A DNA stretch of 51,430 nt from Lachnospiraceae bacterium. Lineage in GTDB: Bacteria > Bacteroidota > Bacteroidia > Bacteroidales > Bacteroidaceae. Shown in pieces: positions 35,060-38,063 of the stretch. Under the pieces are notes generated by a model, which worked only from the letters and a program-made list of their open reading frames with translations, was not told where the DNA came from and did not search any database. Position 1 is the first letter of the stretch; each line of letters opens with the position of its first letter. The position numbers and the translations under genes are program-made. The stretch lies in NCBI GenBank assembly GCA_963594575.1, contig CAVBFV010000425.1, positions 1 to 51,430 of the forward strand, in the 5' to 3' direction.

Positions 35060-36079
35060 ATGATGGCAAACAATATCATAATAAACCAAGCATTGGATGC
35101 TCTTAGAGCAAGCCTTCCTGTGGGGGATGTTGTGTCAACAACAGCCGTCAAAGTAAATTGTACCAATGAAAATGATGTCACTGTTAAGATAATGAATGTA
35201 GATTTTGTGTGTCATGTAAGGGAAAACATAACCAAGGCCACATTAAATCCGACATTAGCGACTATGCAAACTATGAACAATGACAAGCAGCAAATCTTGC
35301 TTGTTACGCAATACGTCACGCCGCAGGTATCAACAGAATTGGCAAACAGAGGCATCAACTATCTGGACTGTGCAGGAAACTGCCTTGTCAGATATACAAA
35401 GGCAGGAAACTTGATTTTCCAAATATTTAATCAAGGAAGGAAAAATACAGAGTCCAAGGTGAAAACCTATCCCGTGTTTCAAGATGCAGGATTGAAGGTC
35501 GTGTTTTATCTATTGCAAGATGCAGACAATATAAAGAAGCCTTATCGAGAGATAAAAGAGCAAATTGGTGTATCTTTGGGAAGCGTGAAAAACGTTTTGG
35601 ATGAACTTGCAAGACGTGGTTTTGTTTGTGACACTAAAAACGGTCGCATAATAAAAGACAAGAAACAACTGCTTGACTTATGGGTTAGCAATTACAATGA
35701 AGTATTGAAACCCAAATTGCTGGTAGGCGCAATGGCATTTCGAACAGAAGCGAATAGAAATGAGTGGAAAAACATAGCATTGCCAAAGGGCATGTCATGG
35801 GGAGGAGAGCCTGCCGCAAACTTGACGGATGGCTACTTACAACCAGGACTTTTCGACATATACACGGAAATACCTGCAGCACATCTTATACGAACAGGTG
35901 TCGTCAAGCAAGATGCAAATGGGGAAATTCATCTGTACAACAAATTTTGGAATTGGGAAACAGACACCAGAATTGTTCCTGCTATATTAATCTATGCAGA
36001 CTTGATGGGTAGTGGCAACAGTCGCTGCTTGGAGGCTGCGCAACGCATATTAAAGAATGAGCTTAAAGATTTCGAGTGA
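35060..36079 (+). CDS. abiEi: Type IV toxin-antitoxin AbiEi-family antitoxin
   Basis: INYLDCAGNC, HTH segment YREIKEQIGVSLGSV, WGGEPAA, and LIYADLMGSGNSRCLEAA. Confidence 0.85.
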   Translation: MMANNIIINQALDALRASLPVGDVVSTTAVKVNCTNENDVTVKIMNVDFVCHVRENITKATLNPTLATMQTMNNDKQQILLVTQYVTPQVSTELANRGINYLDCAGNCLVRYTKAGNLIFQIFNQGRKNTESKVKTYPVFQDAGLKVVFYLLQDADNIKKPYREIKEQIGVSLGSVKNVLDELARRGFVCDTKNGRIIKDKKQLLDLWVSNYNEVLKPKLLVGAMAFRTEANRNEWKNIALPKGMSWGGEPAANLTDGYLQPGLFDIYTEIPAAHLIRTGVVKQDANGEIHLYNKFWNWETDTRIVPAILIYADLMGSGNSRCLEAAQRILKNELKDFE

Positions 36080-36908
36080 AAAGATAAATAATCCATTCCT
36101 TGTGGATTTGTTGGAGAAACTTACAGATAGCTTCCGTAGAATGGATCACGACTTCTTTATCATAGGAGCCACCGCCAGAGATATAATCATGCAGCAAATG
36201 CTGAACACGTCATCACGTAGAAAGACAAGAGACTTGGATCTGGCTATAGCTGTTCCAAACTGGCAGGAATTTGATAAAATCAAAAATAGTTTGATTGCGG
36301 ATGGTTTCGAGAAAGACAAGGCAAAACACCAACGCTTCTATTATGGTGACTATGAGATAGATGTTGTTCCATACGGATATGTCGCTAAGGCAGATGACAA
36401 CATCTATTGGCCACCCGAAGAAACAATTGCCATGTCCGTAAAAGGGTTTGATGAAGTGCTTTCTGATGCGATAACGGTTAGTATTGATGACAGATTCACT
36501 GTAAAGATAGCTTCCTTGCATGGATTATTCTTGCTGAAGTTCAATGCTTGGATGGACAGACATTTAACCACAAACAAGGATGCAGAGGATATGTCGTTCA
36601 TATTGGACAACTACCTTATGGCAAACTTGGATCGAGGAGCGTATATGGAAGTGTATGATTGGGAAGATTTTGACGAATATGTAGCTGGTGGCTATTGGCT
36701 GGCAAACGATTTGGCAAAGTTATTGAACCGAGACCAACTTGTATATTATGCAGACAAAATTGACGAGGAATTGCAGTTGAAGGAGAGAAGCTATTTGATA
36801 AGCCAAACTCTCAATTCACAATCGGGTTTGAATTATGACCAAGTAAGGAGAACATGGCAAGTCATTTCAGAAGTGTTTCGCTCTGCTACAGAAGAAAGGA
36901 ATTTATAA
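36057..36908 (+). CDS. abiEii: AbiEii-family nucleotidyltransferase toxin
   Basis: IIGATARD, RKTRDLD (NTase G-A...DxD), LLKFNAW and KDAED; overlaps abiEi. Confidence 0.85.
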   Translation: MSLKISSEKINNPFLVDLLEKLTDSFRRMDHDFFIIGATARDIIMQQMLNTSSRRKTRDLDLAIAVPNWQEFDKIKNSLIADGFEKDKAKHQRFYYGDYEIDVVPYGYVAKADDNIYWPPEETIAMSVKGFDEVLSDAITVSIDDRFTVKIASLHGLFLLKFNAWMDRHLTTNKDAEDMSFILDNYLMANLDRGAYMEVYDWEDFDEYVAGGYWLANDLAKLLNRDQLVYYADKIDEELQLKERSYLISQTLNSQSGLNYDQVRRTWQVISEVFRSATEERNL

Positions 36909-37546
36909 TGATAGATATAAAATATTGTAGTCAAAAAGGCTTATGTGATACAAACCAAGATTTTATCTTGTGCAAACAATTACAAGATGGGAGTTGCATC
37001 GCTATCCTTGCCGATGGTATGGGTGGCTTACAATATGGTGAGATTGCAGCAGCCACTGTTGCACAAAGTATTTATAAAATATTGGCCGAACATAATTCTG
37101 TGGATATAAGAGAGCTGTTAGCAAAGGCTTTTGAACAAGCAGACATTGCAGTTGCAGATAAATGCAAGGCTATTTGTTGCAAAATGGGAGCAGCAGTTAC
37201 CGTCTTATACATAAAAGATGATACTGCCTATTACGCATGGCAAGGAAATGTCCGTCTATATTACAAAAAAGAAAAAGGTATACATCAACTTACTGAAGAC
37301 CACCAGAAGGAAGGTGATAATTGTACCTTTCTGACTCGTTGTGTGAATGGAAGAGGTTTCCGCAACCCTATATCCATTCAAGAAACGAAAACATCAGACA
37401 TGGACTTGTTGTTGTTATGTACAGATGGATTTTATCAATCCAAGGATTGCATAGATTCTGTTATAGTAGAAAACAAATTGCCAAGTCGTATAGAATACTT
37501 GGAAGATGATGCATCCTGCATTCTCATACAGTTGCATAACCCTTGA
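36908..37546 (+). CDS. PP2C/PPM-family Ser/Thr phosphatase (start MIDIKY)
   Basis: NQD, LADGMGG, LTEDH, LCTDG and DDAS motifs; TAATG overlap with abiEii. Confidence 0.85.
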   Translation: MIDIKYCSQKGLCDTNQDFILCKQLQDGSCIAILADGMGGLQYGEIAAATVAQSIYKILAEHNSVDIRELLAKAFEQADIAVADKCKAICCKMGAAVTVLYIKDDTAYYAWQGNVRLYYKKEKGIHQLTEDHQKEGDNCTFLTRCVNGRGFRNPISIQETKTSDMDLLLLCTDGFYQSKDCIDSVIVENKLPSRIEYLEDDASCILIQLHNP

Positions 37547-37559
37547 TAAGATAAGAGAT

Positions 37560-38063
37560 ATGGCAAAGAAGAAGCATAAAGGACATTATTGTAAGATTTG
37601 TGGTGAATACAAGTCGAACGAGTCATTTTCGGGGAAAGGTCATGCCCAACACATCTGTAAGGAGTGCATGGGTGAGATGAAGAAAGGCAACAAGAAGATT
37701 TTGGACTTGCCTTTCGGGGACAATGTGTTTGAGATCGTTGATGCCGATGAATATATCGATACTATTTTATATGGCAACAACGAAGAACGAGAAACCAAGA
37801 CTTTCAAGAAACTCAGCCGTGAACAGAAAATGGTGTTGAAAGCGATAGTGCAAGATGAAGTTACGTTCTATTGGCAAGCCCATCGACAGATACCAGTAAA
37901 TGACAAGTTAAAACAACTCAGAAGTTCTGTCAATACTGTAGTATATGAACAGTTGGACTTTGCCATAAAGGATGACACGATGTTCAAAGCTTATATACAA
38001 GAGCAAGTCATCACTGTCATAAACAAGATCTTGCGACAGGAGAAAGAACAAAATAACCAATAG
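37560..38063 (+). CDS. Hypothetical protein with an N-terminal Cys4 zinc finger
   Basis: GHYCKICGEYK...GHAQHICKEC. Confidence 0.7.
   Translation: MAKKKHKGHYCKICGEYKSNESFSGKGHAQHICKECMGEMKKGNKKILDLPFGDNVFEIVDADEYIDTILYGNNEERETKTFKKLSREQKMVLKAIVQDEVTFYWQAHRQIPVNDKLKQLRSSVNTVVYEQLDFAIKDDTMFKAYIQEQVITVINKILRQEKEQNNQ

Follow-up and report, generated by a model that had tools for sequence, protein, structure and literature searches.

Type VII nucleotidyltransferase (NTase) toxins such as MenT1, MenT3, and AbiEii are silenced by phosphorylation, and they share a Ser or Thr residue two positions ahead of the catalytic Asp. Here, we describe a locus whose predicted toxin carries such a residue and whose third gene encodes a phosphatase. 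The locus lies within a 51,430-nucleotide stretch of Bacteroidaceae DNA (contig CAVBFV010000425.1 of assembly GCA_963594575.1, deposited as Lachnospiraceae bacterium), hereafter called the window, and comprises an AbiEi_2-family antitoxin gene, an NTase toxin gene, and a PP2C-family phosphatase gene. It is probably a phosphorylation-controlled, three-gene toxin–antitoxin (TA) cassette that serves defense and that resides in Bacteroidales mobile elements and chromosomes. By analogy to described systems, the module most likely operates like a type VII phosphoregulated system with a built-in phosphatase.

Related Systems

The nearest solved fold to the window toxin comes from the Mycobacterium tuberculosis MenA1–MenT1 pair, in which MenT1 is inactivated by antitoxin-induced auto-phosphorylation at T39 (PMC11375011; this and the other cited sources are used here as excerpts). 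The pair differs from the window module in that MenA1 is not a winged helix-turn-helix (HTH) regulator, identity to the window is 15–16%, and the excerpted source describes no cognate phosphatase. The AbiE systems of Streptococcus agalactiae and Lactococcus lactis likewise place a regulator before a DUF1814 transferase, possess an inverted-repeat operator, and use a Thr phosphoacceptor (PMC3985639; 10.64898/2026.01.19.700257). Specifically, AbiEi induces auto-phosphorylation of AbiEii at T65, and the housekeeping PP2C SaSTP reverses the modification and restores activity in vitro (10.64898/2026.01.19.700257). AbiE differs in being a bicistronic COG5340–COG2253 pair, and its phosphatase is a housekeeping enzyme. 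The same paper, in the part seen, leaves the in vivo role of the phosphatase as a question and mentions neither “PP2C” nor gene neighbors. Similarly, the TakA–TglT/MenA3–MenT3 toxins are silenced at the Ser/Thr preceding the catalytic Asp, although their fold is more distant (Z 9.1). TglT is dephosphorylated slowly and unspecifically by the housekeeping PP2C PstP, and the authors postulate a further phosphatase (PMC7205606). Together, the papers on MenT1, AbiEii, and TglT bear out, as far as the excerpts go, the statement in an initial annotation of this locus that related NTase toxins are silenced by antitoxin-dependent phosphorylation at this position.

Two other systems invite comparison. 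The kinase–kinase–phosphatase (KKP) system is also a tripartite, phosphorylation-based TA defense system, and its PF13672 PP2C senses phage. KKP has the reverse polarity, however: its kinases act as the toxin and its PP2C as the antitoxin, and it contains no NTase (PMC11341870). The second is PDC-M21, a PADLOC phage-defense candidate found on Acinetobacter plasmids that has the same order of HTH protein, T-x-D-x-D NTase, and PP2C, with overlapping gene ends (Payne et al., 10.1101/2024.01.29.577857). M21C shares with the window phosphatase the absence of the motif-1 Arg and an Asp-Asp ending. The differences lie in the sequences: the toxins are 27% identical over 85 residues and the PP2Cs 21% identical, and M21A has 170–215 amino acids (aa) versus 339 aa for the window AbiEi_2 protein. 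The window toxin matches the M21B model at 4e-8, compared to 5.7e-69 for the Acinetobacter gene and 1e-38 or better for true M21B proteins. The window PP2C matches M21C at 2.3e-10, compared to 1e-26 for the Acinetobacter gene, and PP2Cs unlinked to a toxin score similarly to that of the window. The M21A model has no match in the window, and a pairwise comparison (E 0.52) shows the antitoxins to be unrelated by sequence. The window module is not canonical AbiE, and it is not PDC-M21 by the M21A test. In a quick tree, M21C sits on a long branch, which weakly suggests that it had an independent origin. A Pseudomonas PDC-M21 copy has a short, 141-aa PP2C.

The excerpted PDC-M21 source mentions AAD(2'') and PP2C in a figure legend only, and it neither names M21 nor offers a mechanism (10.1101/2024.01.29.577857). 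The initial annotation took this gene arrangement to be apparently undescribed, which is too strong: the layout is already catalogued as a PADLOC candidate, albeit with distant proteins. A literature search that covered titles and the starts of abstracts, with subscription journals and bioRxiv supplements beyond reach, found no description of an operonic phosphatase for AbiE or MenAT pairs, of this subfamily, or of that reading. Separately, we note that 10 of 200 Bacteroidota genomes harbor a PDC-M21A/M21B pair without PP2C (11 loci: L153–L162 and L172), a widespread two-gene NTase TA candidate.

A Phosphatase Gene Coupled to the Toxin

The cassette consists of the following features.

34917–35050, plus strand: putative promoter/operator and left cassette edge (from half-sites, an inverted repeat, and a DNA match)
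35060–36079, plus strand: AbiEi_2 antitoxin/regulator gene (open reading frame [ORF], 339 aa)
36057–36908, plus strand: DUF1814/MenT1-like NTase gene, predicted toxin (ORF, 283 aa)
36225–36227, plus strand: Thr57 codon, predicted phosphoacceptor and equivalent of MenT1 Thr39 (from a profile alignment)
36908–37546, plus strand: PP2C/PPM-fold phosphatase gene, translationally coupled (ORF, 212 aa)

The antitoxin and toxin ORFs overlap by 23 nucleotides (nt), and the toxin stop codon and PP2C start codon are joined in TAATG at 36906–36910, both as initially annotated. To learn how widely this linkage extends, the survey covered 301 genomes of the family, 401 of the order, 200 of the phylum, and 79 metagenome loci. 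Within the family, 12 other genomes contain the toxin, and 10 of these have PP2C directly downstream; the exceptions are a close relative that has lost PP2C (G490) and a distant, broken locus (G407). There are 18 family PP2C matches besides the window’s own, of which the best 10 all follow the toxin and the weaker 8 do not. Toxin precedes PP2C in 75 of the 79 metagenome loci, approximately 60 of which are near-copies of one element, and the other 4 are 5'-truncated PP2C pieces. Across the order, 2 of 23 other toxin matches carry PP2C, and the remaining 21 have none within 1.5 kb. The phylum set yielded nine PP2C matches, all weak (5e-35 or worse) and none with a toxin inside 1.5 kb; therefore, in the genomes searched, the linked subfamily was not found outside the Bacteroidales. 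PP2C is thus a clade-specific addition to the pair. The PP2C sequence cluster has 4,869 members, indicating that the element is widespread among Bacteroidales of the gut.

Phylogeny shows that the two genes are inherited together. In a tree of 37 toxins, from which the partial L146 and L104 sequences were omitted, a clade with 100/99 support contains 16 PP2C-linked rows plus one loss, and locus L095 falls outside the clade. The 16 PP2Cs likewise form one clade in a quick tree (SH support 99), with subgroups that largely match those of the toxin tree. Toxin and PP2C distances correlate with a rho of 0.65, a value that none of 5,000 permutations reached, with the proviso that kin are not independent. 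The link persists across 31–99% toxin identity and 21–97% PP2C identity. Of the 17 junctions, 16 are overlaps or gaps of at most 1 nt, in varying geometries. The ratio of nonsynonymous to synonymous substitution (dN/dS) is 0.19–0.22 for PP2C in seven of eight pairs, the remaining pair being saturated; it is 0.09–0.20 for the antitoxin and 0.02–0.15 for the toxin. Clade-wide retention, co-divergence, coupling, and dN/dS therefore mark PP2C as a selected third gene. The initial annotation had named a lack of PP2C beside homologous loci as one outcome that would refute its proposal, and the link held, with 10 of 12 family homologs, matching trees, and kept coupling.

Could PP2C nonetheless be a passenger that was acquired a single time downstream of an ordinary AbiE-type pair and has no functional tie to it? 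This idea draws on the distribution, in that the linked genes are essentially one clade, PP2C is missing from most order-level homologs, and the majority of the metagenome loci are near-copies of a single element; yet the gene has been kept over deep divergence and in unrelated contexts while the Zn-finger gene adjacent to it turns over, it has remained coupled via differing junctions with a dN/dS of about 0.2, and PDC-M21 and probably L095 show the layout again. We regard a passenger as highly improbable.

Two loci have unusual structures. In L076 (5001–5630), the antitoxin and toxin are 98–99% identical to those of the window and PP2C is 76% identical. DNA identity stops at window position 37452, and the second half of the protein has apparently been swapped from another lineage, through recombination or chimeric assembly. 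In L091 (1–4993), the antitoxin gene is inverted and lies apart from a 5'-truncated toxin gene, and PP2C is intact, which could be a rearrangement or a misassembly.

The Toxin and the Antitoxin

Among 48,161 chains, the top structural match to the AlphaFold2 toxin model (pLDDT 92.8) is MenT1 (8an4; Z 13.5, root-mean-square deviation 3.8, 177 residues aligned). Next are a fungal NTase-like protein (Z 11.8), ANT(2'') (Z 11.6), MenT4 (Z 9.2), and TglT (Z 9.1); Foldseek ranks ANT(2'') entries slightly ahead of MenT1. Searching the PDB by sequence with the toxin or the antitoxin alone gave no meaningful match. The toxin possesses catalytic D59 and D61, motif III (K161-F-N-A-W-M-D-R168), and D175 and D178. 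Residues G37, D59, D61, K161, D175, and D178 are invariant in 39 of 39 homologs, and motifs I–IV of Pol-beta-fold transferases are thereby present. Thr57 sits in RKTRDLD, as first annotated, and T57-x-D59 aligns to T39-x-D41 of MenT1 in a weak profile alignment (E 0.025). The residue is likewise invariant in all 39 homologs, whether PP2C is present or absent. Thr57 is therefore a trait of the family and not a pointer to PP2C, and it was discarded as specific evidence for the link to PP2C.

The initial annotation identified the pair as AbiEi–AbiEii. That identification stands for the antitoxin family (PF09952 AbiEi_2, E 1.9e-23) and marginally for the toxin (PF08843 AbiEii, E 1e-4, scoring 22.8 bits where the cut-off is 22.5). 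It fails at the level of the PADLOC AbiEi and AbiEii models, none of which matches the window pair at E ≤ 0.1. Rather than a canonical AbiEii, the toxin is MenT1-like. Its motif III agrees with the COG4849 pattern quoted in PMC3985639, and from motif III and the fold we infer that the pair is of the COG4861–COG4849 type. By analogy, the toxin most likely arrests translation by extending the 3' ends of tRNAs with added nucleotides.

The antitoxin has a central HTH (approximately residues 160–195) and a C-terminal AbiEi_2 domain (198–332). Its N-terminal part belongs to no family and returned no usable match in an Atlas search. Upstream of the antitoxin gene, seven TGTTCA/TGAACA half-sites in inverted arrangement surround a TATCTTTG box, which we take to be the Bacteroidetes -7 consensus. 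These seven hexamers fall within approximately 160 bp, versus 64 across the whole window, and a 28-bp inverted repeat is present at 34992–35050. All 16 other loci examined, PP2C-less pairs included, have three to eight copies of the hexamer 5' of the antitoxin. A sigma-70 promoter scan is uninformative for a Bacteroidetes-type promoter. The array is likely the site of antitoxin autorepression, and it is similar to the operator of AbiE, which is likewise built of inverted repeats (PMC3985639). Thus, PF09952 combined with an HTH, together with the kept repeats, appears to give the locus the upstream-regulator and inverted-repeat layout of the DUF1814/AbiE–MenAT superfamily.

An Altered Phosphatase

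The third protein belongs to PF13672 PP2C_2 (E 4.3e-14), and its model (pLDDT 95.0) has template modeling (TM) scores of 0.78–0.87 to bacterial Stp1, tPphA, and PstP chains. The initial annotation stated that PP2C keeps its metal-binding motifs. This is so for the PPM fold and the M1/M2 site, as all 73 subfamily members share the four Asp residues D18, D36, D173, and D200. It is not so for the third metal or for the motif-1 Arg. Specifically, Asn114 aligns with tPphA D119, presumably a third-metal ligand, and the third-metal Asp of the GDSR motif is absent. Asn occupies position 114 in 52 of the 73 members and Asp in 21; every Asn114 protein carries Asp201 where canonical enzymes carry Asn. 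The Asp at position 114 is kept in 6 of 17 toxin-linked PP2Cs. The motif-1 Arg is missing from all 17 linked PP2Cs and present in 9 of the 10 unlinked PP2Cs shown, and the window PP2C has a short flap.

What these departures mean for catalysis can be judged from other PP2Cs. We assume that the third-metal Asp of PPM1B is the GDSR Asp. Loss of the PPM1B third-metal Asp kills catalysis and leaves phosphopeptide binding in place (PMC13142519). A review considers the third metal possibly supportive but dispensable (PMC12088040), and the motif-1 Arg is not universal among active bacterial PP2Cs (PMC3375153). It is plausible but uncertain that the window PP2C is catalytically active; with Asn in place of the third-metal Asp, the protein may turn over slowly or serve as a phospho-binder. 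An alternative role follows from the latter possibility. PP2C could be a pseudophosphatase or a very slow enzyme that binds the toxin phosphorylated at Thr57, capping it against housekeeping phosphatases or acting as a sensor that releases the toxin on a trigger. The Asn114–Asp201 combination, the missing Arg, the short flap, and the PPM1B mutant all speak for such a role. Retention of the Asp in 21 subfamily members, 6 of the toxin-linked proteins among them, and the four invariant M1/M2 residues speak against it, as do the reports that neither the Arg nor, maybe, the third metal is essential. On balance, we think a binding role unlikely.

The altered active site also bears on a different proposal, in which the PP2C fold would strip off a nucleotide adduct made by the transferase, much as the PP2C-like de-AMPylase SidD does, and would so act as an antidote, either a second antitoxin or a factor for recovery. 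Other hydrolytic activities are known among PP2C-fold enzymes, SidD and Lem3 being examples in the excerpted literature, and the toxin is structurally near the ANT(2'') adenylyltransferases. Most homologous pairs, however, have no PP2C. The gene has been lost in L138 and is broken in L061, L080, and L089 (the latter could be assembly errors). Since loss or breakage is tolerated, an activator fits better than an antidote. Furthermore, the products of MenT and AbiEii toxins are extended tRNA ends and not protein adducts (10.64898/2026.01.19.700257; PMC11375011). An antidote role is therefore very unlikely.

A Mobile Cassette and Its Neighbors

The window as a whole is a Bacteroidales conjugative element (TraG, TraM, DUF4138, Toprim, ArdC-like, Mob_Pre, and resolvase genes). 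GC content is 39% in the cassette versus 46–48% in the flanks. DNA identity to L068 and L074 spans 34917–37565, from the operator to the PP2C stop, and both of those cassettes lie amid unrelated chromosomal-type genes. The three-gene unit moves between elements and chromosomes as one cassette. Two features follow it in the window.

37560–38063, plus strand: Cys4 Zn-finger gene (ORF, 167 aa)
38065–38099, strand not assigned: hairpin terminator between the operon and a convergent OmpA-like gene (from folding, shuffles, and a terminator scan)

As the initial annotation had it, the Zn-finger gene begins 13 nt after PP2C and a terminator comes next. The hairpin has a predicted energy of -13.7 kcal/mol (z -3.75), and 0 of 200 shuffles were equally stable. 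The scanner assigned it to the minus strand; a bidirectional role is therefore possible. RNA data were considered as support for the operon: contigs of three metatranscriptome runs from one study span it and end at 38068–38133, two of them deeper than the flanks. These data were rejected because the runs were picked via the same stretch, the flanks are covered as well, the material is possibly DNA, and the contigs are strandless.

The system was initially annotated as having three or four components. Three genes are conserved, and the four-gene version was rejected. In the related element L206, the same slot holds a canonical AbiE/DUF6088 pair (AbiEi and AbiEii models, 1e-49 and 4e-84) followed by the Zn-finger gene. 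In L082, the same slot contains the three-gene cassette and lacks a Zn-finger gene. None of 26 more divergent linked loci, some of which have short flanks, gave a match to a Zn-finger profile. The Zn-finger gene, being missing from divergent loci and trailing another pair, is therefore a resident of the slot and not part of the cassette, although here the two are probably co-transcribed. The Zn-finger protein yielded zero Pfam families over cut-off, and the Atlas returned unnamed clusters only. In this family, the N-terminal Cys4 finger and C-terminal helices are almost invariant, and the acidic linker is variable, with many internal deletions.

The contents of the slot and the genes near other cassette copies suggest a role in defense. 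The same slot is occupied by a PDC-S01 ATPase in L185, and other copies of the cassette adjoin SspBC (L092), a type II restriction–modification pair plus GmrSD (L209), and a second AbiE (L211). The two nearest unlinked PP2Cs close mad7–mad8-like operons. These relatives raise the possibility that PP2C belongs to the module and acts on another substrate. Phage kinases serve as counter-defense, and the substrate could be a phosphate that such a kinase places to disable defenses, the antitoxin, or host proteins. In keeping with this possibility, PP2C has diverged faster than the toxin in one pair (60% versus 87% identity), and PP2Cs sense phage in KKP (PMC11341870). The loci examined contain zero kinase genes within the cassette, however, and in two distant subfamilies PP2C is strictly placed after a toxin whose family is phospho-silenced, which makes the toxin the simpler substrate. 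We hold a different substrate to be rather unlikely.

Several neighboring genes are described here for completeness. In L223 (2870–10698; genome G406) and L224 (35–9418; G492), the unlinked PP2C terminates an operon with SspF-like, mad7, and 1,850-aa mad8-like genes, which may represent a Bacteroidaceae variant of MADS that ends in PP2C. In the window, a low-GC cargo block at 8583–16520 adjoins a transposase within the tra region and encodes an extracytoplasmic function (ECF) sigma/beta-barrel fusion, a radical S-adenosylmethionine (SAM)/SPASM protein, an oxidoreductase, a C25 peptidase, and an S74/type IX secretion system protein. Two ArdC-N/MPTase polyvalent proteins, one with a MutS-I fusion, are encoded at 26879–29296 and 31804–33024, and constitute anti-restriction-type cargo close to the cassette. 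A 215-bp segment at 30919–31134 is missing from close relatives.

A Candidate Re-Arming Phosphatase

How might the three proteins function together? Gene content, folds, motifs, co-inheritance, coupling, and purifying selection are established directly; the biochemical steps and the trigger are what we infer. First, the AbiEi_2 protein would repress the operon at the TGTTCA/TGAACA repeats, as the anatomy of the locus and the AbiE precedent suggest. Second, the antitoxin would bind the NTase and induce auto-phosphorylation at Thr57, blocking the active site. The models for this step are MenT1, MenT3, and AbiEii, and its extension to an AbiEi_2-type antitoxin is putative. Third, the co-translated PP2C would erase the Thr57 phosphate. 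Normally it would be slow or outpaced by the antitoxin, which is consistent with its degenerate third-metal site. Fourth, loss or diversion of the antitoxin, or stimulation of PP2C, for example by phage infection or loss of the element, would re-arm the stock of silenced toxin without new synthesis, and translation would arrest. By analogy to SaSTP and PstP, we give about even odds that PP2C is a dedicated re-arming phosphatase for the phosphorylated toxin.

Several points weigh against PP2C as a re-arming phosphatase. Most order-level homologs have no PP2C, so the toxin family works without it. Similarly, 11 of 11 strong PDC-M21B loci in the Bacteroidota have no PP2C within 1.5 kb. The Asn at the third-metal position and the missing motif-1 Arg, along with the PPM1B precedent, count against efficient hydrolysis, and the conservation of Thr57 is indifferent to PP2C. 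A canonical PP2C is also encoded elsewhere in the same genome, on contig C26. Published work cautions that COG4849–COG4861 pairs need not all be phosphoregulated, and the S. agalactiae AbiE did not protect against 32 coliphages (10.64898/2026.01.19.700257, as excerpted). Finally, the slot is filled by a PRTase weakly like ShosT in L207 and by a PcfJ-like gene in L208, neither of which is a clear defense gene.

We speculate further about the logic of the design. The notion is that the antitoxin writes an “off” mark on the toxin, and that a trigger-gated PP2C erases the mark on infection. PP2C would thus be an activator of the toxin, the reverse of its role in KKP, and the degenerate third-metal site would keep it near-silent until stimulated. 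Such a design has seemingly been recruited repeatedly, in the Bacteroidaceae clade, in L095, and in PDC-M21. This extended version is tentative, and we consider it somewhat doubtful as a whole.

Perspective

Two papers, in the parts excerpted, arrive at the same question, namely the identity of the phosphatase that restores activity to the phosphorylated toxin in vivo and the signal to which it responds (PMC7205606; 10.64898/2026.01.19.700257). The cassette described here supplies a genetically coupled candidate for that re-activating phosphatase, contained in a 2.6-kb unit. It would also bear on phospho-control in the AbiEi_2/COG4849-type branch of these systems, and it would lend PDC-M21 a mechanism.

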